From positions 15,389 to 79,388 of the forward strand of contig JAZRUV010000029.1 of the NCBI GenBank assembly GCA_045652705.1: 64,000 nucleotides of DNA, given 5' to 3'. Shown here one piece after another: positions 2,110 to 62,918 of this stretch; within the stretch, counting starts at the first letter, position 1; each line of letters begins with the position of its first letter. Source of the DNA: Clostridia bacterium. Its GTDB lineage: Bacteria; Bacillota; Clostridia; TANB77; CAG-465. A model generated the notes under the pieces. That model worked only from the letters and a program-made list of their open reading frames with translations, searched no databases and had not been told where the DNA came from. The translations under genes and the position numbers were made by a program.

Positions 2110-2137
2110 TTGCCTATGTAAAATTGGAGGTGTTTTT

Positions 2138-2491
2138 ATGGCATTAATACGACCTTGTGCAGATTTGAGAAATAATTATAACGAAATTTCTAAAATTTGT
2201 CACGAAACAAAAGAAGCAATGTACATAACTAAAAATGGTGCAAATGATTTGGTTATATTAAGCAATGAAGCATATGATGAGTTAGTTAATAATAGAGAAA
2301 CAGATGATGAGAGAATAGATAGACTTGTAGCTGCGCATTTTGAAAAGCATTATGAAAGTTTTGAAGAATTTCAAAAAGAAATATTTGAAAAAATAGACCA
2401 AGCTTTTAGAGATATTGAACAAGGACATTATATACCAATGGAAAATGCTGTAGCAGAGCTGGAGGAAAAATATGGACTATCTGAAAGCTAA
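2138..2491 (+). CDS. Type II antitoxin, Phd/YefM family
   Basis: MALIRPCADLRNNYNEISKICHETKEAMYITKNGANDLVILSNEAYDEL is a typical Phd/YefM N-terminal domain; RBS ggagg lies 8 nt upstream; overlaps the downstream toxin by 20 nt. Confidence 0.75.
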   Translation: MALIRPCADLRNNYNEISKICHETKEAMYITKNGANDLVILSNEAYDELVNNRETDDERIDRLVAAHFEKHYESFEEFQKEIFEKIDQAFRDIEQGHYIPMENAVAELEEKYGLSES

Positions 2492-6714: not shown

Positions 6715-8046
6715 ATGTTTGAAAGTTTATCAGATAAACTACAAAATATAGCAAGAAAATTAAGAGGGACAGCAAGAATTACTGAAAAAGACTTAAAAGA
6801 AATGTTAAGAGAGGTAAAACTTGCACTTCTTGAAGCAGACGTAAACTACATGGTTGTTAAGACATTCATTAAAGCTATTGAAGAAAAAGCTTTAGGTGAA
6901 GATGTAATGAAATCTTTAACACCAGGGCAACAAGTAGTTAAGATAGTAAAAGATGAGCTAACTAAAATGCTTGGTGGTACAGATTCAAAGATAAATATAT
7001 CTTCAAACCCACCAACAGTGATTATGCTTATAGGGCTTCAAGGTAGTGGAAAAACAACACTTGCTGGAAAACTTGCAAACTACTTAAGAAAGCAAGGAAG
7101 AAAACCACTTCTTGTTGCGTGTGATGTATATAGACCAGCAGCAATAACTCAACTTAAGACACTCGGTAATTCATTATCTATACCTGTATATAGTGAAGAA
7201 CAAAATAAAGATGTTGTAGATATAACAAAGAATGCATTTAAAGAAGCAAATTCTAAAATGTGCGATACTGTAATTATAGACACAGCAGGACGTATTCAAA
7301 TAGATGAAGTTCTAATGGATGAGTTAGTAAGACTTAAAGCGTTTGCAAAACCACACGAGATTATGCTTGTTGTAGATAGTATGACAGGTCAAGAAGCTGT
7401 AAATGTGGCAAGTGCTTTCAATGAAAAAGTTGGCATAGATAGTATCACACTTACAAAACTTGATTCAGACACACGTGGTGGTGCAGCACTTTCTGTAAAA
7501 CAAATTACAGGCAAACCAATAAAGTTTGCATCTGTAGGTGAAAAGCTAAGCGATTTAGAAGTGTTTCACCCAGATAGAGTTGCATCAAGAATTCTTGGAA
7601 TGGGAGATGTGTTATCTGTAATTGAACAAGCTGAAGAATTATATGAACAAGAGGAAGCTGAAGATTTAGAAAAAAGAATTAGAAAAAATGAATTTAGCTT
7701 AGAAGATTATAAAGCTCAAATAAAGAAAATACGCAAAATGGGAATGAATAAACTAATGGCTATGATGCCAGGTGTTCCTGCAGAACTTAAAAATGCTGAA
7801 ATTGATGAAAAACAGATAGATAAAATTGAGGCTATAATAAATTCAATGACCGCTAAAGAAAGAAGAGACACTGGTCTACTTAATGCATCTAGAAGAAAAA
7901 GAATAGCAACAGGTAGCGGGACAGAAGTTTCAGATGTAAACAAAGTAGTTAATCAATATGAACAAATGAGAAAAGTAATGAAGGATATGTTAAATGGGAA
8001 AAATCCACTAGCTGCTTTAAATATGAAGCGCAAGGGTTTTAGATAA
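6715..8046 (+). CDS. ffh: Signal recognition particle protein Ffh
   Basis: N, G (GLQGSGKTT, DTAGR, TKLD) and Met-rich M domains. Confidence 0.95.
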   Translation: MFESLSDKLQNIARKLRGTARITEKDLKEMLREVKLALLEADVNYMVVKTFIKAIEEKALGEDVMKSLTPGQQVVKIVKDELTKMLGGTDSKINISSNPPTVIMLIGLQGSGKTTLAGKLANYLRKQGRKPLLVACDVYRPAAITQLKTLGNSLSIPVYSEEQNKDVVDITKNAFKEANSKMCDTVIIDTAGRIQIDEVLMDELVRLKAFAKPHEIMLVVDSMTGQEAVNVASAFNEKVGIDSITLTKLDSDTRGGAALSVKQITGKPIKFASVGEKLSDLEVFHPDRVASRILGMGDVLSVIEQAEELYEQEEAEDLEKRIRKNEFSLEDYKAQIKKIRKMGMNKLMAMMPGVPAELKNAEIDEKQIDKIEAIINSMTAKERRDTGLLNASRRKRIATGSGTEVSDVNKVVNQYEQMRKVMKDMLNGKNPLAALNMKRKGFR

Positions 8047-8082
8047 AAAATAATTTATATAAATTTTAAGGAGGTGACTTTA

Positions 8083-8334
8083 ATGGTTAAAATAAGATTA
8101 AGAAGAGATGGTGCTAAAAAAGCTCCATATTACACAATGGTTGTTGCAGATTCTAGATATCCAATGGATGGTAGATTTATAGAAAAAGTTGGTACATACA
8201 ATCCTATGACTGAACCAAAACAAATAAATCTAGATGCTGAAAAAATAAAAGAATGGATAAGAAAAGGTGCAAAACCAACAGATACTGCAAAAGCATTAAT
8301 CGCACAAGCAGGAATCAATCTTAAGGAGGTCTAG
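8083..8334 (+). CDS. rpsP: 30S ribosomal protein S16
   Basis: [17 protein letters not shown]...; RBS aaggaggtg; ATG at 8083 (the track began at 8074). Confidence 0.9.
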
Positions 8335-10342: not shown

Positions 10343-11170
10343 ATGGAAAACAGTATTAAATTATTTGAAGACAAAAGAGTAAGAGCAGCGTGGAATGAAG
10401 ACGAGGAGAAATGGTATTTCTCTGTAATTGACATTGTTGGAGCATTAACAGATAGTGATTATCAACAAGCAAGAAATTACTGGAAATGGCTAAAAAACAA
10501 ATTAAATGAAGAGGGAAGTGAATTGGTTAGTAATACTAACCAGTTGAAAATGGAGGCTAGTGACGGAAAAATGAGATTAACAGATGTAGCAGATGTTGAA
10601 CAAATATTTAGACTTATACAGTCTATTCCTTCTAAGAAGGCAGAACCTTTTAAATTATGGCTAGCTAAAGTTGGAAAAGAAAGAATAGATGAAACTTATG
10701 ACCCTGAAATTGCTATAAATAGAGCCTTAGCAACTTATAGAAGAAAAGGTTATTCCGAATCATGGATTAACCAAAGATTAAAATCTATAGAAGTGCGCAA
10801 AGACTTTACAGATGAACTACAAAGAGTCGGAATTAACAAAAGTAAAGATTTTGCCATATTAACAAATACCTTAACACAAGTTTGGAGTGGACATACTGTA
10901 AAAGAATATAAAAATATAAAGGGACTAAAGAAAGAAAACTTAAGAGACAATATGACAAATACAGAACTAGTATTCAATATGCTCGCTGAAATTTCTTCTA
11001 CGGAAATATCAAAGTGCAAAGATAAACACGGATTTGAGGAAGCAGAGGATTCTGTTATTACAGGTGGTGGTATAGCTAAAAATGCAAGAGAACAATTAGA
11101 AAGAGTTACTGGAAAGAAAGTAATAACAGATGAAAAGCCTAAAAGAAAAGTAAAAGAATTAAGTGAATAG
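10343..11170 (+). CDS. Bro-N domain protein (phage antirepressor / DinD-like family paralog)
   Basis: N-terminal FEDKRVRAAWNEDEEKWYFSVIDIVGAL is Bro-N-like; C-terminal GGGIAKNAREQLERVTGKK resembles the DinD C-terminus; RBS aggaagggg. Confidence 0.6.
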   Translation: MENSIKLFEDKRVRAAWNEDEEKWYFSVIDIVGALTDSDYQQARNYWKWLKNKLNEEGSELVSNTNQLKMEASDGKMRLTDVADVEQIFRLIQSIPSKKAEPFKLWLAKVGKERIDETYDPEIAINRALATYRRKGYSESWINQRLKSIEVRKDFTDELQRVGINKSKDFAILTNTLTQVWSGHTVKEYKNIKGLKKENLRDNMTNTELVFNMLAEISSTEISKCKDKHGFEEAEDSVITGGGIAKNAREQLERVTGKKVITDEKPKRKVKELSE

Positions 11171-11222
11171 ACCATTTTGTTGACTTTAGCAAAATGGTTA
11201 AAGCTAGTGTATTACTAGTATA
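11171..11222 (+). pseudogene. Short out-of-frame remnant of a dinD-like gene (reads IDHFVDFSKMVKASVLLV*) directly after the stop of the Bro-N gene
   Basis: Encodes the DinD DHFV-x3-KMV motif; carries the accattttg/caaaatggt inverted repeat. Confidence 0.4.
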
Positions 11223-11236
11223 GAAGGGGTGGATTT

Positions 11237-12199
11237 ATGGAAGATGATAATATAATAGTTCAAAATGAAACATCAAGTAAAGATATTAAAAGCTTAATTT
11301 ATACAGTAAGAGGAAAGCAAGTGATGTTAGATAAGGATGTTGCAATGTTGTATGATTACCCTACTAAAAGAATAAATGAAACTGTAAGTAGAAACAAGCA
11401 AAGATTTCCTCAAAATTTTTGTTTCCAATTAACTACTGAAGAATATGAAGTTTTGCTAAACAAAAATTTAAATTCAAATAATGATAAAATACAAAAGATA
11501 GTAGTAAAGAATTCTTTAAGGTCGCAAATTGCGACCTTAAACGAAGAAACAAAAAGAGGTAAACATAGAAAATACTTGCCATACGTTTTTACAGAACAGG
11601 GTATAGCAATGCTATCTGGATTATTAAAAAATGATATAGCAATTCAAGTTAGCATAAATATAATGAATACATTTGTAGAAATGCGCAAGTTTTTAATGCT
11701 TAATGGACAAGTCTTTGAAAGACTAACTAGCATAGAATATAAATTATTAGACTATGATAAAAAGTTTGATAAGGTTTTTGACCAATTGCAACTTGAAGAA
11801 AATATTAAGCAAAGAATATTTTTCGACGGCCAAATTTATGATGCATATAGTCTTGTTCTAGATATTATAAAGAAAGCCAATAAAGAAATTTTAATTATAG
11901 ATAATTATATTGATGATAGTGTTTTAAAGATGCTTGCGAAAAAGAAAAACAATGTATTGGTAACTATTTTGACATCACTTAAAAGCAATATTCAAAACTT
12001 GGATGTTCAAAAATTCAATTTAGAGTATCCGGCTATAAAAATTTTAAAGACAAATAAATTTCATGATAGATTTATAGTAATTGACAGTAAAGAAATGTAC
12101 CACTTAGGAGCATCTATAAAAGATCTAGGTAAGAAATGCTTTGGAATTAATAAAATAGAAGATATAGAAATTATACAAAAGATTATCAGCATTAAATAA
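11237..12199 (+). CDS. ORF6N-domain protein (phage KilA-N/antirepressor-associated DNA-binding family)
   Basis: VRGKQVMLDKDVAMLYDYPTKRINETVSRNKQRFPQNFCFQLTTEEYE is an ORF6N signature; RBS gaagggg. Confidence 0.6.
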   Translation: MEDDNIIVQNETSSKDIKSLIYTVRGKQVMLDKDVAMLYDYPTKRINETVSRNKQRFPQNFCFQLTTEEYEVLLNKNLNSNNDKIQKIVVKNSLRSQIATLNEETKRGKHRKYLPYVFTEQGIAMLSGLLKNDIAIQVSINIMNTFVEMRKFLMLNGQVFERLTSIEYKLLDYDKKFDKVFDQLQLEENIKQRIFFDGQIYDAYSLVLDIIKKANKEILIIDNYIDDSVLKMLAKKKNNVLVTILTSLKSNIQNLDVQKFNLEYPAIKILKTNKFHDRFIVIDSKEMYHLGASIKDLGKKCFGINKIEDIEIIQKIISIK

Positions 12200-12255
12200 C
12201 TATAAAATCTTGACAGTTAACGGCTTGTGTTACGCGATAGTGACGTGTATAACAG

Positions 12256-12368
12256 GGGGTGGAATAGCAAAAAATATCAGAGAACAGTTAGAAAGAGTTA
12301 TTGGAAAGAAAGTAATAACTGAAGAAAAGCCAAAATGAAATGTAAAAGAGCTAAACAAGTAATTTTAT
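12256..12368 (+). pseudogene. Duplicated, 5'-truncated copy of the 3' end of the Bro-N gene (about 85% identical to 11065-11170) with a premature TGA
   Basis: Direct alignment to 11065-11185: GGIAKNIREQLERVIGKKVITEEKPK*NVKELNK*; followed again by the tagaccattttgtt junction. Confidence 0.55.
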
Positions 12369-12479
12369 AGACCATTTTGTTCAAATGGATAAAATGCTCA
12401 AAGGCTTGATAGAAGTGAAGCAGAGGGGAAGTAGTATAAACAATAAACATTAATTAACTTTCAAAAGGAGGAATATATA

Positions 12480-13298
12480 ATGAAAGTGTTAAAGGATGGA
12501 AAGTATAAAAATTTTGAAGATATAAAAAACATAAGGGAAGATGGAACTGAGTTTTGGTATGGTAGAGATTTAGCAAAAGTATTGCAATATGTAGAATGGA
12601 GAAATTTTGTTAAAGTAATTAATAAGGCGAAAAGCGCTTGTGAAAATAGTAGAAGAAATATATTAGACCATTTTGTTGAGGTCAACAAAATGGTCCGAAT
12701 AGGCAGTAATACTGAAAGAGAACTGTTAGACTATGGACTTTCTAGATATGCTTGTTATCTTATTGTGCAAAATGGAGACCCTAAGAAAGAAGTAATTGCC
12801 CTTGCACAAACATACTTTGCAATTCAAACCAGAAAACAAGAAATTAGTGAGAAAGAATACAGTTTGTTAACTGAAGATGAAAAAAGATTATATAATAGAA
12901 ATTTAACAAGAAAAGGTAACTATTCTCTTAATCAAACTGCTAAAAATGCAGGAGTTAAAAATTTTGATAAATTTCATAATGCTGGTTACAAAGGATTGTA
13001 TAATGGAGAAACTGCAGATGATATTGCTAAAAGAAAAGGCTTGAGATATAGAGAAGATATATTAGATAATATGGGAAGTGATGAGCTAATAGTAAATCTG
13101 TTTAGAATATCTCAAACAGAACAAAGTTTAAAAAGGGAGAATGTAAAAACTGAAAACAAAGCAAATAGTACTCATTATAACATTGGAAAGAACATTAGAG
13201 AAGTAATTGCTAAAAATGGTGGAACAATGCCTGAAGATTTGCCAACACCAAAAAAGAGTTTAAAAGAATTGGAAAAAGAGAGTAAATTAGTTAAATAA
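12480..13298 (+). CDS. dinD: DNA-damage-inducible protein D homolog (DinD family, Bro-N domain)
   Basis: FWYGRDLAKVLQYVEWRNFVKVINKAKSACE...DHFVEVNKMVRIGS...LSRYACYLIVQNGDPKK...AQTYFAIQTRKQE is collinear with E. coli DinD. Confidence 0.75.
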   Translation: MKVLKDGKYKNFEDIKNIREDGTEFWYGRDLAKVLQYVEWRNFVKVINKAKSACENSRRNILDHFVEVNKMVRIGSNTERELLDYGLSRYACYLIVQNGDPKKEVIALAQTYFAIQTRKQEISEKEYSLLTEDEKRLYNRNLTRKGNYSLNQTAKNAGVKNFDKFHNAGYKGLYNGETADDIAKRKGLRYREDILDNMGSDELIVNLFRISQTEQSLKRENVKTENKANSTHYNIGKNIREVIAKNGGTMPEDLPTPKKSLKELEKESKLVK

Positions 13299-47633: not shown

Positions 47634-49040
47634 ATGATAAAACAACAAAAAAACAAACAAGGTGTATCGCTAATAGTACTAGTAATAACAATAATAGTAA
47701 TGATAATATTAGCAGGAACAATTATTCTATCTTTAAATAATAGTGGAATAATAGAAAAGGCCAAAAACGCAGTAGATGAAACGAACTTAAAAGAAGTTCA
47801 AACACTTGCGTCATTAAAGTGGGCAGAAGCATTTGTGGATGGGAATATAACACAAGAGCAATTAGAAGAGGAAGTATTAAAAAGATTAAATGATGAAAAT
47901 GTAGACTTAACACCATATGAAATAACAGTAACAGAAGATGGTGTAAAGGTGGCGTTAAGAGCGCCTATTCCCGAAATATGGAAAGCAAATGTAATAGCTA
48001 TAGTAGACACAGTACCAATACCAAAAGGATTTGTAGCATCATCAGTAGCAGGAGAGAACACAAAAAATGGTGGCCTTGTAATATATGAAGGAACAACACC
48101 AGTTACAGCTGCAAATGTAGAAGATGCAAAAAGAACAAGAAATCAATATGTATGGGTGCCAGTAGAAGATTTTAGCAAGTTTGTAAGACAAGATTTTTAT
48201 AATTTAAATACTATATCTAACACATTAGGAACAGGTAATTGGGAAGTAGTATTGGATACTACAACAAATATGCCACTTGCAACACAAGACGAAAATTATG
48301 TGACAAGTACAACATTAGCAGAAGTACAAGCAATGTATGAAAGTGTAAAGGAATATAAAGGCTTTTATATAGCACGTTATGAAGCAGGAATAGATACACA
48401 AGGAACAAGCGAGACTACTTTAGTAAAAGGTTCAAATGTATATTCGATGATGGGAAAAATACCATATGAAATACCATGGACAAAAAATGATAAGATGAAT
48501 GAAGATACAGGTGGAGCAGTAGAGGTGGCAAGGAGTATGTATCCTGTAACAAATACTAATTATGGAGTAGTATCAACATTAACATATGGGGTGCAGTGGG
48601 ATAGAACGTTAGCATGGTGGCTAGAAGTTGGTGCTAAAGATGGAAAAGGCAATGTTATAACAAGTGTAACAGATAGTGCAAGTTATGGTAATTACGATGA
48701 TCACGTAATAGCAGCAGGAGATTTAAATGACGGTGCAAAATATGGTGTTTATGATTATAATGAAGGTACAATTGAGTTTCAAACAGCAACAGCAAGTTCA
48801 ACAAAAGCATCAGGAACTTGGTGGGCGTTAACAACAGGAGCATTAAAAGCGGCAAGCGTAAACAATATTTATGATATGGCAGGAAATATGATGGAATGGA
48901 CAATGGAAGGCAGCGGTGTTTATGAGCGTATAGCTCGCGGTGGCCATTTCGAAGGTTATGGCGATGGAGACGATGTATCATCTCGTACCAGTGTCTACGG
49001 CTCTTCTGGGTTCCGTTCAGCACTTTACATAAAGAAGTAA
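47634..49040 (+). CDS. Secreted or anchored protein with a pilin-like N-terminus and a C-terminal FGE/SUMF1-like (formylglycine-generating enzyme family) domain
   Basis: N-terminus KQGVSLIVLVITIIVMIILAGTIILSLNNSGIIEKAKNAVDE is paralogous to the 5324 protein; C-terminus ARGGHFEGYGDGDDVSSRTSVYGSSGFRSALYI fits the RGG-S/H-W/F...GFR motif of FGE-sulfatase domains. Confidence 0.5.
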   Translation: MIKQQKNKQGVSLIVLVITIIVMIILAGTIILSLNNSGIIEKAKNAVDETNLKEVQTLASLKWAEAFVDGNITQEQLEEEVLKRLNDENVDLTPYEITVTEDGVKVALRAPIPEIWKANVIAIVDTVPIPKGFVASSVAGENTKNGGLVIYEGTTPVTAANVEDAKRTRNQYVWVPVEDFSKFVRQDFYNLNTISNTLGTGNWEVVLDTTTNMPLATQDENYVTSTTLAEVQAMYESVKEYKGFYIARYEAGIDTQGTSETTLVKGSNVYSMMGKIPYEIPWTKNDKMNEDTGGAVEVARSMYPVTNTNYGVVSTLTYGVQWDRTLAWWLEVGAKDGKGNVITSVTDSASYGNYDDHVIAAGDLNDGAKYGVYDYNEGTIEFQTATASSTKASGTWWALTTGALKAASVNNIYDMAGNMMEWTMEGSGVYERIARGGHFEGYGDGDDVSSRTSVYGSSGFRSALYIKK

Positions 49041-54887: not shown

Positions 54888-54921
54888 TTAAAATCTACGT
54901 TAAATTAAAATAGGGGTGTTT

Positions 54922-55677
54922 ATGGCGAGCGAACTAAGAGGACAAATGGAAGAGCAATTGGGCTTATTAGAAACAAAAGTAGAAAGAGCATATGATGTTA
55001 GTGAAAATAAAGAAAAAGATATAATTGCTAAAAAGCTACAAGAAATGTCTATAAATATTAAACAAGTTTTAGCAACGAATATTATAGGAAAAGAGTATGA
55101 TACTTTTACAAAAATAATAGATATAATAAATGACGAGCTAGAGGCTGTTATAATACATATAATAGCTAGCGCGAGAAAACAAGAAAAGCAAGAGGCTATG
55201 TACAAGGTTAGCCATTTATATTCAAAAAATATAGAAGAAATTATAAATGGTCGAGAAGAAATAAAAACTATGTGTGTAGCGCAAATTAGAAGTTGTGTTA
55301 TTCCTATAGACAATGCTTTTAATGAAATTGTAAAAGTGTATATGGAAAATTTGCAAGACTTTAAAGACAATATTTCACAGCAAGTATTAAATAAAGTAGT
55401 ATATGAAATACATAGATGTGCAAATGAGGTTCAAGAAACTCATTCAGTTCAAACATATAGTATAGAAAATCAAATAACTACCAATATAGATAAAATGGTA
55501 AATGCTTTGCAAGCGCTAAAAGAAAAAAATGTTACAGAAACTAAACACATAAGGATAAAAGGTGGGGTAACAAATTCTCAAAATGCTAATGTGTCTTTAA
55601 GTGATATATTAGCCTCTAAAGTAGAAGTAGAATATGATATACCTAAAAGAGATAATATACAAGGTTTATTTGATTAA
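54922..55677 (+). CDS. Hypothetical coiled-coil protein inserted between gap and pgk
   Basis: About 251 aa from the ATG after RBS taggggtg; helical, no recognised domain. Confidence 0.45.
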   Translation: MASELRGQMEEQLGLLETKVERAYDVSENKEKDIIAKKLQEMSINIKQVLATNIIGKEYDTFTKIIDIINDELEAVIIHIIASARKQEKQEAMYKVSHLYSKNIEEIINGREEIKTMCVAQIRSCVIPIDNAFNEIVKVYMENLQDFKDNISQQVLNKVVYEIHRCANEVQETHSVQTYSIENQITTNIDKMVNALQALKEKNVTETKHIRIKGGVTNSQNANVSLSDILASKVEVEYDIPKRDNIQGLFD

Positions 55678-56883: not shown

Positions 56884-57348
56884 ATGTTAAAAAACAAACC
56901 TATATATATATTTGCTGCGATACTTATAGCAATAGTAACTATTGCTATAAGTGTCGTTGTGTCTGTATATAATGAAAACAAACCAATTGTACCTAATCAA
57001 GATATAGAGGTTGTTTCTTCAAACGATATGTTAAAAGTAAAAAGTGCATATGAAACACAAGGTAAGAAACAAGAATTTTTGGAGTTGTGTTCAAAAATAG
57101 AATTGGGTGTTGCAAACAAACTATTAGATGGAACTGTTACTAATGATATCGAGTTAAAAGCTGCTATAGAAAAAATAAATAAAGTGCTTTTAACAGATGA
57201 TTGGTCATATATAGGACTTGAGGCTTCTAGTTACTGGATGGGGAAATGGGAATTAAATGATAATGGAGCTGTAACATTTACATTTAGAGATACTAATTTA
57301 AAACCAAATTGGGCAGTGGACGTTGATGTAAAACAATATATAAAATAG
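56884..57348 (+). CDS. Hypothetical membrane-anchored protein inserted between pgk and tpiA
   Basis: 154 aa, N-terminal TM then soluble domain; RBS aaggggaat. Confidence 0.45.
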   Translation: MLKNKPIYIFAAILIAIVTIAISVVVSVYNENKPIVPNQDIEVVSSNDMLKVKSAYETQGKKQEFLELCSKIELGVANKLLDGTVTNDIELKAAIEKINKVLLTDDWSYIGLEASSYWMGKWELNDNGAVTFTFRDTNLKPNWAVDVDVKQYIK

Positions 57349-58121: not shown

Positions 58122-61006
<2,885 letters not shown>

Positions 61007-61019
61007 TTAAGGACAATAA

Positions 61020-61064
61020 AAACAAACTGACGTAAGTATATGCTTATGTCAGTTTGTTTTTTGT
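61020..61064 (+). terminator. Strong intrinsic terminator (aaacaaactgacgtaag...cttatgtcagtttgtttttt)
   Basis: 17-bp stem followed by a T-tract; ends the glycolytic operon. Confidence 0.75.
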
Positions 61065-61080
61065 GTATTAGTTGAAAATT

Positions 61081-61110
61081 ATGTAAATATGTGATATAAT
61101 ATTGCCAGTT
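61081..61110 (+). promoter_or_regulatory. Promoter of the GC-enriched cassette: -35 TTGAAA, 17 nt, -10 TATAAT (about 61076-61104)
   Basis: ttgaaa-attatgtaaatatgtga-tataat read directly from the sequence. Confidence 0.45.
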
Positions 61111-61152
61111 TATAACTGAATTTCAAAAATAATTTTTTTAGGAGGCTAGATT

Positions 61153-62046
61153 ATGAATACGAAAAAAGTCCCGATGCATGCATTTATTGTAAATTTTTTA
61201 AAAGTTGTAAATCGGACAGAGGAACACATTTGTGTACTTTTGAATGCTATTGCTCCAGTAGAAAGAGCGGCGGATGTTATTCTTTGTGAAAGCTTAGATA
61301 GTAAGCTAGAAAGTTTGCTAGAGCCAATACTCACTTATCCTGAACACTTCCATTTAAGTCTTGATGCTGAAAATATAAAGCTTAAAAATCCTGAAACACT
61401 AGATGAACTTGTAGAGCACTGGCCGGTAGATACTACTGTTACAGAAGCCATTAGGGATGAGCTAAAAAAGTACGAGTCCCCTATGATGTATGGAGGAGTG
61501 GCTTTAGACTATGCGGCAGAAAACGAGAGATATATTAGTGGTAGCACAAAATATATTGATTGGTTGTGGGATAGGCTAGAGCAAAATTATAGACCTAATA
61601 CTCGTTTCTTAAATGATAGTTGTAGGAGAACAGTAGGCGATTTAGCAAACATTGTTCGTATTTCAAGTTTACATACGCTCCTTAGTAGATACTATAGTAA
61701 GAATTGTATGGACTATTGTGGGGATGATAGAGAAAGTGCAACATATATTTTCCATTATTCTAGAAACGGCAAACAACGTTATTTTAAAGTCGCGAGAGAA
61801 GTGGTAAAGGATGTAAGAGGAAACATTATAAGTTATTCTGTAAAGGAACACAAACCAGTAAAAAATGCCCCATATTTTCCAGATGTTGTTTTGTGTGTAC
61901 CTAGCGAGTTGTTGGAGGAGAGAGTGATAGTTTTTAATAAGTTAAATGAACTATTTAAAAAGGCAAGAGATATTTCTTTAAGTTATGATGCAATTCAATA
62001 TGATTTAGGCATAATTTACGGTAAAATTGAAGATCCCAGAGATTAA
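61153..62046 (+). CDS. Hypothetical protein (297 aa), cassette gene 1, GC-enriched foreign composition
   Basis: RBS taggaggct; GC about 10 points above its neighbours, with CGG/GCG/CCG codons; no recognised domain. Confidence 0.5.
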   Translation: MNTKKVPMHAFIVNFLKVVNRTEEHICVLLNAIAPVERAADVILCESLDSKLESLLEPILTYPEHFHLSLDAENIKLKNPETLDELVEHWPVDTTVTEAIRDELKKYESPMMYGGVALDYAAENERYISGSTKYIDWLWDRLEQNYRPNTRFLNDSCRRTVGDLANIVRISSLHTLLSRYYSKNCMDYCGDDRESATYIFHYSRNGKQRYFKVAREVVKDVRGNIISYSVKEHKPVKNAPYFPDVVLCVPSELLEERVIVFNKLNELFKKARDISLSYDAIQYDLGIIYGKIEDPRD

Positions 62047-62061
62047 AAGGAGGAAAGATAT

Positions 62062-62613
62062 ATGGCAGAAAAAACATTTTGGGAGCGATTTAATGAAAGC
62101 TTGGAAAACCAAAAACGGTTAGTTGAAAGTACTGACTACTTTGACTGGCTGTATGAATTCACGAAAAAATATCCGAAGTTTACAGATACAGATTGGCTGT
62201 ATGATAGAGAGAGCATATCTGAAAGTGATTATAGTCAGGTAGAACTTCTTACAGATTTCTTTACAGCTGTTGACCAGTATCATAGAAGAAATCGCATGGG
62301 AGCAAATTCCGAGGGCTATGCAGCTTGGTATAACATTAAATACAAGGATGCATATTTTGCGATTGGTGTTCGTGTAGGACAAGGCGCCCAAAACTTTGTG
62401 ACAAGGTATAAACGGTATCAAGAGATGATTCCTGACCCCTTCATCGAGTTTGAGGCCATCTTGGAAAACAAAGAGAATCCTGGGCTTGCCGAAAAGAATA
62501 AAGCACTTCTGAGGTTGCAAATCGCAGCGAATGATCTTCGGACTTTGGGAGTACCTAGAGAAATTATAGAAAATACAATTAAGCAAGTTTTTGATAAAAA
62601 AGAAAATCCCTAG
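62062..62613 (+). CDS. Hypothetical protein (183 aa), cassette gene 2
   Basis: RBS aaggaggaa; same composition as gene 1; 16-nt intergenic spacing suggests co-transcription. Confidence 0.5.
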   Translation: MAEKTFWERFNESLENQKRLVESTDYFDWLYEFTKKYPKFTDTDWLYDRESISESDYSQVELLTDFFTAVDQYHRRNRMGANSEGYAAWYNIKYKDAYFAIGVRVGQGAQNFVTRYKRYQEMIPDPFIEFEAILENKENPGLAEKNKALLRLQIAANDLRTLGVPREIIENTIKQVFDKKENP

Positions 62614-62637
62614 TACATAAATAATTTAATCAAAATA

Positions 62638-62681
62638 ACGCTAAAACTGCGGTAGCAAATGCTATCGCAGTTTTAATGTTA
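62638..62681. terminator. Bidirectional terminator (aaaactgcggtagcaaatgctatcgcagtttt)
   Basis: 15-bp stem between the cassette and the convergent abrB-like gene. Confidence 0.7.
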
Positions 62682-62918
62682 TTTTGAAAGTTCTTTTTTG
62701 CAAGATTCACAAACAACTTTGTCTTTGAAATAACTAACGTTTGTAGAATCACCACAGAAGATACAGCATGGTTCATATTTTCTAAGTATAACACTGTCTC
62801 CTTCAACATAAATTTCCATTGGATCTTTTATTTGTATGTTTAAAGTTTTTCTAAGTTCCATAGGAAGAACAATTCTACCTAGTTCATCTATTTTTCTAAC
62901 TATTCCTGTTGATTTCAT
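62679..62918 (-). CDS. abrB: AbrB/SpoVT-family transition-state regulator with a C-terminal CxxC...CxxC extension
   Basis: MKSTGIVRKIDELGRIVLPMELRKTLNIQIKDPMEIYVEGDSVILRKY is collinear with the AbrB N-domain; the tail PCCIFCG...CESCKK is not found in B. subtilis AbrB. Confidence 0.75.
   Translation of the reverse strand: MKSTGIVRKIDELGRIVLPMELRKTLNIQIKDPMEIYVEGDSVILRKYEPCCIFCGDSTNVSYFKDKVVCESCKKELSK

Follow-up and report, generated by a model that had tools for sequence, protein, structure and literature searches.

In streptococci, pherotype and bacteriocin-immunity loci are chromosomal allelic cassettes under balancing selection. The two-gene abortive-infection (Abi) systems of lactococci, such as AbiG, AbiT and AbiL, consist of two adjacent cytoplasmic proteins without recognisable domains behind a constitutive promoter; they are mostly plasmid-borne and lower in G+C than their host, and the two partners are not paralogs. 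In homogeneous polyimmunity loci, tandem paralogs lie in one orientation, the operon holds no toxin gene, and the content of the locus varies between close strains (PMC3482391); the encoded proteins are of the alpha+beta type and conserve aromatic residues (Zhang, Aravind et al. 2012, PMC3482391). Here we analyse a locus of two adjacent genes, A and B, in a 64,000-nucleotide (nt) stretch of an uncultured Clostridia bacterium (assembly GCA_045652705.1, contig JAZRUV010000029.1, positions 15,389 to 79,388 of the forward strand), which we call the window and to which all coordinates refer unless another locus is named. The two open reading frames (ORFs), A (61153..62046, + strand; 297 amino acids, aa) and B (62062..62613, +; 183 aa), occupy a slot between eno (59678-61006), the gene directly upstream, and a convergent abrB-like gene (62679..62918, - strand).

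We are highly confident of the descriptive part of this analysis, which comprises the anatomy of the slot, the paralogy of A and B, their restriction to one lineage, the purifying selection on both genes, the sharply bounded island of divergence that they form, the uncoupling of their alleles, the variable content of the slot and the invariance of its promoter. With regard to function, the reading that we favour, to which we assign a probability of about one in three, is that A and B are non-enzymatic binding proteins of an immunity- or defence-like kind, whose diversity is maintained through allele exchange.

The eno-to-abrB slot and its alleles

Each of the 13 distinct loci that were recovered carries the A/B family in the same slot between eno and abrB (related loci are designated below by L numbers). 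The order of the genes upstream is conserved and runs gap, an unknown gene, pgk, a second unknown gene of 154 codons (u154), tpi, gpmI and eno, followed by the slot; downstream, on the opposite strand, lie the abrB-like gene, rlmH, an MBL-fold gene and an EPSP-synthase-family gene. In the window, expression of the slot is predicted to start from a sigma-A-type promoter, TTGAAA-17-TATAAT with an extended -10 element (61072..61100, +), which matches 11 of the 12 consensus positions and carries the TG extension; it is the only site scoring above 9/12 by consensus between 59.5 and 64 kilobases (kb). This promoter, (G/C)TTGAAA(A/T)TTA...TGTGATATAAT, and the leader behind it, AAAAAATAATT-TTTTAGGAGG, hardly vary among the 11 loci that were aligned. 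The leader belongs to a 5' untranslated region (5'UTR; 61101..61152, +) that consists of a conserved A/T-rich tract with the ribosome-binding site (RBS) AGGAGG at 61140-61145. A regulatory RNA in this region was considered and rejected, as Rfam gave 0 matches to the 5'UTR and its RNA fold was not significant (z -0.9).

The promoter and leader are constant whatever gene precedes them, whether eno, a membrane-anchored protein of the X477/X470 type (470-485 aa) or a CptN toxin, and whatever gene follows them, which is A in most loci and B in L010 and L014. What lies behind the promoter is therefore best described by its variants. Most loci have the order A-B, the order is inverted to B-A in L014 and L015, and L010 holds B alone, with a clean spacer of 162 nt between eno and B and no remnant of A. 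B is present in every locus. In addition, a gene for a protein of 470-485 aa (X477, X470 or X485) stands before the pair in L001, L014 and L021. In L016, a type III toxin-antitoxin module (7286-8256 of that locus) lies between eno and the A/B promoter; it has its own promoter, a 47-nt tandem repeat present in 2.2 copies (7355-7458) and a terminator, which are followed by a toxin gene assigned to the NCBIfam family CptIN (NF047359, E 4e-48, 163 bits against a cut-off of 90). An identity of this extra gene with ToxN/AbiQ was not supported by Pfam or PADLOC, and NCBIfam pointed instead to the related type III toxin CptIN.

Several further observations concern the genes around the slot in these relatives. 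The gene for the 468-485-aa protein is located at 47634-49040 (+) in the window, at 6282-7715 in L001, at 32-1444 in L014 and at 1928-3385 in L021, and so its position shifts within the lineage, from 13 kb upstream of the slot in the window to between eno and the A/B promoter in the three other loci. Its product has a pilin-like N-terminal hydrophobic segment (KQGVSLIVLVITIIVMIILAG), and its C terminus shows a similarity to FGE-sulfatase (E 8.7e-4) that falls under the Pfam cut-off. In L016, an IS110 transposase separates gpmI from eno. Past a 70-aa gene downstream of the EPSP-synthase-family gene, there is a second variable slot; it contains a split ToxN_toxin gene, probably pseudogenised, in L021 (8551-9079), an AAA_14/DUF4143 ATPase in L001 (13828-15087) and small unknown ORFs in the other loci.

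The A and B alleles are far more diverged than the genes that flank them. Across the loci, A and B alleles are 20-85% identical while the flanks are 77-95% identical, and the abrB-like protein is 70-97% identical, compared with values down to 20-40% for A and B. Relative to the window, the protein identities of eno, gpmI, tpi, A and B are 97, 96, 93, 64 and 84% in L005; 97, 90, 84, 79 and 72% in L001; 91, 89, 76, 67 and 38% in L009; and 92, 87, 82, 20 and 50% in L012. When nucleotide identity was followed in bins of 150 nt, a drop from about 90% to 62-78% (L005) or about 45% (L012) coincided exactly with the interval from the promoter to abrB. The synonymous divergence (dS) is in line with this picture. 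Between the window and L005, the flanks show a dS of 0.19-0.61, compared with 2.47 for A and 0.93 for B; between the window and L001, the values are 0.38-1.39 for the flanks and 0.81 for A; and between the window and L010, the synonymous differences in B are saturated (proportion of synonymous differences, pS, 0.83), with a flank dS of 0.28-0.97. The gene u154 served as an internal control, and its divergence tracks that of the flanks with no excess of dS.

The ratio of nonsynonymous to synonymous substitution (dN/dS) was 0.08-0.16 for the two genes wherever it could be computed (A 0.10-0.16; B 0.08-0.16), which indicates that A and B are real genes maintained by purifying selection. Together with their conserved length, these values exclude the possibility that the slot holds non-coding or decaying DNA. 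The pattern of relationships points to exchange between relatives. First, L005, the closest genome judged by its flanks, has a more distant A allele than L001, a situation that indicates allele replacement rather than mere fast evolution. Second, at equal flank distance, A is 20% identical in one genome and 67-75% identical in another. Third, the pairwise identities of A and of B are uncorrelated (Spearman rho 0.135, p 0.43; 36 locus pairs), indicating that the two genes have been exchanged independently, with breakpoints between them.

The base composition of the slot bears on the possibility of a foreign origin. Measured at third codon positions, the G+C fraction (GC3) of A reaches 0.263 and that of B 0.355, whereas the 36 ORFs in the window that are 200 aa or longer have values of 0.180 +/- 0.024, and the codons CGG, GCG and CCG are used 24 (A) and 33 (B) times per 1000, against 8 +/- 6. 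In B, TTA accounts for only 1 of 13 leucine codons, and both CTG and CGG are used, codons that never occur in its neighbours. Total G+C is 0.349 in A and 0.386 in B, compared with 0.360 in eno and 0.348 in gpmI. Thus, the earlier note, made from the sequence of the window, was right to describe the cassette as G+C-rich with respect to GC3 and to these codons, but not with respect to the total composition of A, which lies below that of eno. As GC3 and the rare GC-rich codons are clear outliers in the window, a recently acquired island from a donor of higher G+C content might be suspected. However, the slot is occupied in all relatives, down to a flank protein identity of 76-80%; GC3 is raised in every allele of every locus, however diverged (A 0.25-0.36 and B 0.27-0.36, against 0.12-0.25 in the flanks); no homolog outside the lineage is available as a possible donor; and the slot of the window contains no mobility genes and no adjacent recombinase. 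An excess that is present in every allele must be a stable property of the locus and not the fading mark of a recent import. Recent acquisition is thus largely refuted, and with it the wording of the earlier note that the cassette had been "inserted" after eno, given that the same slot, promoter and family were found in all of the relatives recovered. A link between recombination and GC3 has been described in bacteria (PMC4450053), and it is plausible that the raised GC3 is a by-product of frequent recombination through GC-biased gene conversion and not of foreign origin.

The A/B protein family

An hhalign comparison aligned residues 121-284 of A with residues 13-171 of B at a probability of 95% (E 3.9e-8, 153 columns). 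In a library of 1.84 billion proteins, the A profile matched one B protein (E 1e-6; A 127-289 against B 16-170), and the hidden Markov models (HMMs) of the two families were reciprocal, each matching all members of the other. Judged by these profile comparisons, B is a paralog of the C-terminal domain of A. In the window, the B-homologous part of A, an alpha+beta domain, is encoded by 61513..62004 (+; residues 121-284), and it follows an N-terminal domain of about 120 aa that is found only in A; B is the shared domain as a stand-alone copy and the most constant member of the slot. Landmarks common to both proteins are a helix motif, sT(K/E)Y(I/F)DWL(W/Y), an aromatic residue at the first beta strand and a second helix motif, Y-x-x-x-N (Y180/N184 in A, Y73/N77 in B). 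Neither the 64-kb window nor the flanks of the loci yielded a further A/B paralog in an HMM search.

The AlphaFold2 model of A was confident (predicted local distance difference test, pLDDT, 83.6; predicted template modelling score, pTM, 0.77), and that of B was moderate (pLDDT 71.6, pTM 0.52). In both models, the shared domain consists of helices, a three-stranded antiparallel beta-meander and further helices. Both proteins are soluble and lack a transmembrane segment, with a median isoelectric point (pI) near 5 and 11-15% aromatic residues; the pI is about 5.5 for A and about 5 for the acidic B, which contains 15% aromatic residues. In the A family, whose members are 16-79% identical, Y180 is the sole invariant residue, and M, F, W, Y and A occupy the near-invariant positions; conserved polar residues of a catalytic type or a nucleotide-binding motif were not found in the family alignment. 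The conserved core of B is likewise mostly aromatic and includes a few polar residues, of which D56 and N77 are invariant and K95, Q107, R115 and K145 near-invariant. The most variable part of B is formed by its C-terminal helices.

As the earlier note had supposed, neither protein belongs to a known family. No family match was obtained for A or B in Pfam, NCBIfam, PADLOC or PHROGs. In PADLOC-DB v2, there was no match at E <= 1 for A and B or at E <= 0.1 for divergent relatives; in the absence of any model match, the pair does not represent a known defence system. A match to phrog_29408 (E 0.004) was dismissed as spurious because only one of 19 family members produced it, and weak Pfam matches (HCNGP, VipE, TACO1 and others) were rejected because they were inconsistent between family members. 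Searches of PDB sequence profiles returned nothing below E 0.19. The Foldseek comparison that the earlier note had proposed found no fold match either: the best values were E 0.16 (A) and 0.08 (B) against PDB, with query-normalised TM-scores of at most 0.25, and only E 0.02 against BFVD. The PDB matches were generic PAS, roadblock and longin alpha/beta folds, which we do not accept as relatives. A and B are therefore built on a previously undescribed alpha+beta domain, no known fold having been matched in the libraries searched.

The family is confined to one uncultured lineage of gut Clostridia. Homologs were found only in a few metagenome contigs and in metagenome-assembled genomes named 'Clostridia bacterium'. 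Among 5.8 billion proteins, A is represented by 20 clusters and B by 23, or by 32 when a profile is used; A had 19 matches in 1.84 billion representative proteins, in a HMMER search that read every sequence, and it is present in one of 185,579 species-representative genomes. A tblastn search of 50,697 phage records and 72,556 plasmids and a scan of IMG/VR revealed no relative, and a mobile origin was rejected on the basis of these searches. The broad alignment of A was too diverged to serve for scanning by pattern. Matches from a scan of Joint Genome Institute (JGI) metagenomes (L018-L020) turned out to be glutaminyl-tRNA synthetases of high-GC bacteria and not homologs. The B motif YFDWLYEF recurs almost exactly in those synthetases (SDYFDWLYEFAEKLIEAG), which is a short chance match.

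The earlier note had listed a toxin/immunity pair among the possible identities of the two genes. In this scenario, A and B would form a type II toxin-antitoxin or a cognate toxin-immunity pair, with A as the toxin and B as its antidote. Two small, adjacent, co-transcribed genes would suit such a pair, and the constant presence of B beside a dispensable A is the pattern expected of an orphan antidote. However, A and B are paralogous over about 155 residues and not unrelated proteins, and A has no conserved polar or catalytic residues. Moreover, the divergences of the two are uncorrelated, indicating that there is no cognate co-evolution; the gene order is inverted in L014, and B occurs alone in L010. 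Neither protein matched a toxin or an antitoxin family in Pfam, NCBIfam or PADLOC. We consider this scenario very improbable.

Possible roles of A and B

Two considerations underlie the reading of A and B as protective binding proteins. First, the absence of catalytic-type residues in A, the small number of polar ones in B and the mainly aromatic core of both make it most likely that they are binders and not enzymes. Second, the predicted strong expression, purifying selection, many ancient alleles and the defence-type cargo of the slot make a protective role the most likely one. Versions that are swapped between relatives beside nearly unchanged neighbours are, moreover, a typical pattern of genes that take part in conflicts with phages or rival bacteria. 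According to this proposal, the near-consensus, lineage-invariant vegetative promoter and the 5'UTR are predicted to drive strong constitutive expression of A and B. Homologous recombination in the conserved flanks on either side, the promoter and abrB, would swap old and diverged alleles between relatives; A and B would be swapped independently, and the number and order of the genes could change in the process (A-B, B-A or B only). Each paralog might then bind and neutralise, or sense, a variable foreign protein, in a mode resembling that of orphan or polyimmunity loci directed against the toxins of competitor strains, or that of phage-directed exclusion. The diversity of the alleles would be kept by frequency-dependent selection. 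That the domain is, beyond this, a new fold family acting as a strain-level determinant of protective specificity (orphan immunity or phage exclusion), with an invariant platform and a swappable cassette, is a more specific proposal that we put forward as doubtful.

Several points weigh against a protective role. No cognate toxin, phage target or secretion system was identified, and no Imm/SUKH immunity or defence family was matched in Pfam or PADLOC. Immunity and defence families are usually patchily distributed over many phyla and mobile elements, whereas A and B occur in one lineage and one slot. The argument from defence cargo amounts to one CptIN module in the slot and one split ToxN gene in the neighbouring slot. 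Gene-wide positive selection was not seen, and the dS estimates, which draw on few genomes, approach saturation. In addition, the polar residues of B (D56, N77, K95, Q107, R115 and K145) could form a ligand-binding or active site.

A related possibility is that A and B constitute a new two-gene anti-phage system resembling abortive infection, in which one paralog senses a phage protein and the other, or the N-terminal domain of A, executes the response. The two-gene, constitutively promoted, cytoplasmic layout without homologs and the hypervariable alleles are what such a system could look like, and defence genes are found at hand, namely CptIN in the slot and the ToxN fragments and AAA_14/DUF4143 ATPase in the neighbouring slot. 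The failure of any PADLOC model to match counts against it, as does the lack of a conserved catalytic or nucleotide-binding motif that would equip A for an effector role. Furthermore, defence systems normally spread horizontally and show a patchy distribution over distant taxa and mobile elements, whereas A and B are found in a single lineage and a single slot. L010 retains B alone, and the A and B alleles of a locus need not match. Taken together, this evidence makes a dedicated anti-phage system improbable.

The remaining alternative is a fast-evolving, lineage-specific cellular function without any role in conflict, be it structural, regulatory, related to stress or accessory to the glycolytic operon or to AbrB; the shuffling of alleles would then be incidental and result from recombination at a weakly constrained locus. 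This explanation accounts well for the single chromosomal position in all relatives, beside core genes and behind a strong vegetative promoter, for the purifying selection on both genes and for their absence from the phages, plasmids and viral contigs searched. Two other lineage-specific ORFs without family match lie in the same operon region, suggesting that such genes are common there. Across the relatives, the region downstream of eno indeed held the pair at a conserved position, but a housekeeping identity was not found for A or B. Four observations speak against the explanation. The control gene u154 tracks the flanks without excess dS, and A and B do not; the loss of A and the inversion of the gene order would be unusual for a needed cellular complex; neither gene has alleles that are coupled to those of the other or to the genome background; and the divergence of A at equal flank distance differs as widely as 20% and 67-75% identity. 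We therefore regard a purely cellular function as unlikely, yet as deserving serious weight.

With the toxin-antidote identity set aside, the broader suggestion of the earlier note, an accessory module of the conflict type, gains support from the lack of a known family, the hypervariable and recombining alleles, the variable content and order of the genes and the CptIN module in the slot. If A and B are protective binding proteins, the catalogue of bacterial immunity and defence proteins would gain a new family and perhaps a new fold. No current annotation library detects the family, and its lineage is known only from metagenomes; the signature by which the locus stands out, and by which such genes can be recognised, is free of homology and consists of conserved flanks and promoter, a bounded island of excess dS, uncoupled alleles of neighbouring genes and a GC3 that is persistently raised. 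Should the protective reading prove wrong, the locus would still offer a clean natural case of allele exchange and of drift in composition at a hotspot of recombination in an AT-rich genome. With its narrow distribution and no cultured host, the family is of limited practical importance.

Surroundings of the slot and comparison with known systems

The left boundary of the slot is the intrinsic terminator of eno (61018..61061, +), a 20-bp stem followed by a T run, with a folding free energy (dG) of -28.5 kcal/mol and a z score of -8.3 against shuffles; the hairpin is kept in the orthologous loci. Within the slot, A and B are separated by a spacer of 15 nt in which the RBS of B, AAGGAGG (62047..62053, +), was read from the sequence, and this arrangement implies co-transcription. 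The right boundary is a bidirectional intrinsic terminator (62642..62675, both strands) with a 15-bp stem, common to B and the abrB-like gene (+ strand, dG -25.8 and z -7.8; - strand, dG -22.0 and z -6.6). The A-B transcription unit comprises one promoter, one terminator and no third ORF. In this respect, the earlier note had read the locus accurately, including its two co-oriented ORFs of 297 and 183 aa, the fresh promoter behind the strong eno terminator, the shared bidirectional terminator and the convergent abrB-like regulator; it had also recognised the short gap between A and B, although it gave its length as 16 nt. An antisense ORF of 155 aa inside B (62119-62586, -) is not a gene, as its frame is codon-aligned with B and is broken by 3-10 stops in the orthologs; it is open only as a by-product of the avoidance of TTA, CTA and TCA codons in B.

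The abrB-like gene, a conserved neighbour outside the cassette, encodes a protein of 79 aa with an AbrB/SpoVT domain and a C-terminal CxxC...CxxC. It matched Pfam MazE_antitoxin (PF04014, E 5.7e-12, 45.8 bits against a cut-off of 24.7) and the NCBIfam AbrB domain (TIGR01439, E 3.8e-8, 32.9 bits against a cut-off of 28.3), and it has the N-terminal swapped-hairpin AbrB/MazE DNA-binding domain by which members of the AbrB/SpoVT family are recognised. Upstream, the glycolytic operon holds two lineage-specific ORFs without family match. One of these (54916-55677, +; 253 aa) lies between gap and pgk and is missing from L005. The other, u154 (56884-57348, +; 154 aa), has an N-terminal hydrophobic segment and lies between pgk and tpi, a position that is kept in every relative covering its region.

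The rest of the 64-kb window is ordinary chromosome, with recG, SpoIVB, ffh, trmD, ftsK, RNase J, murC, ddl, murF, ftsY, serS and others. Directly after recG, a gene at 2135-2491 (+) encodes a protein with a Phd/YefM-type antitoxin domain (E 1.3e-7). Three tandem genes at 10343-13298 (+), downstream of trmD and upstream of an MBOAT-like gene within the housekeeping stretch, encode Bro-N (E 4.7e-9), ORF6N (E 8e-30) and Bro-N (E 1.5e-10) proteins. Bro-N and ORF6N domains are typical of antirepressor-like proteins of phages and mobile elements, and the trio looks like another accessory islet.

In comparison with the systems introduced above, a recombining, hypervariable cassette of tandem paralogs within conserved flanks is a known arrangement; the protein family is undescribed, and the invariant promoter platform behind a glycolytic operon is unusual. 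Like the streptococcal loci, the A/B slot shows conserved flanks, a sharply bounded island, old alleles that cross species boundaries and mosaic homologous recombination. Unlike them, it contains no genes for a peptide pheromone, a kinase, a bacteriocin or a transporter, its products being two soluble paralogs. With the lactococcal Abi systems, A and B share the two-gene layout, the constitutive promoter and a composition that deviates from that of the host genome, but they differ in being paralogous and in lacking a mobile context. In L016, the CptIN system (NF047359) shares the slot between eno and abrB with the A/B family and lies immediately before the A/B promoter; however, it is unrelated to A and B in sequence, it is absent from the window, and it is a protein-RNA system.

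The closest described logic, by analogy, is that of the homogeneous polyimmunity locus. There are differences: A and B have no Imm/SUKH match, and, the CptIN of L016 apart, no toxin gene adjoins any of the 13 loci; there are only one or two genes per locus, in one lineage instead of many phyla; the genes lie in a fixed slot with their own invariant promoter beside a glycolytic operon; and there is no adjacent recombinase, which is frequent but not obligatory in polyimmunity loci, the only mobile element nearby being the IS110 of L016. In other respects, the loci are alike. A and B are tandem paralogs in the same orientation, probably on one transcript, with no toxin gene in the operon; close relatives differ in how many and which genes they carry (A-B, B-A or B alone); and the DNA examined, which comprised the 64-kb window and the flanking regions of the related loci, contains one such locus. 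As with the polyimmunity proteins, the products are small, cytoplasmic and of the alpha+beta type, and most of their conserved positions carry aromatic or hydrophobic residues.

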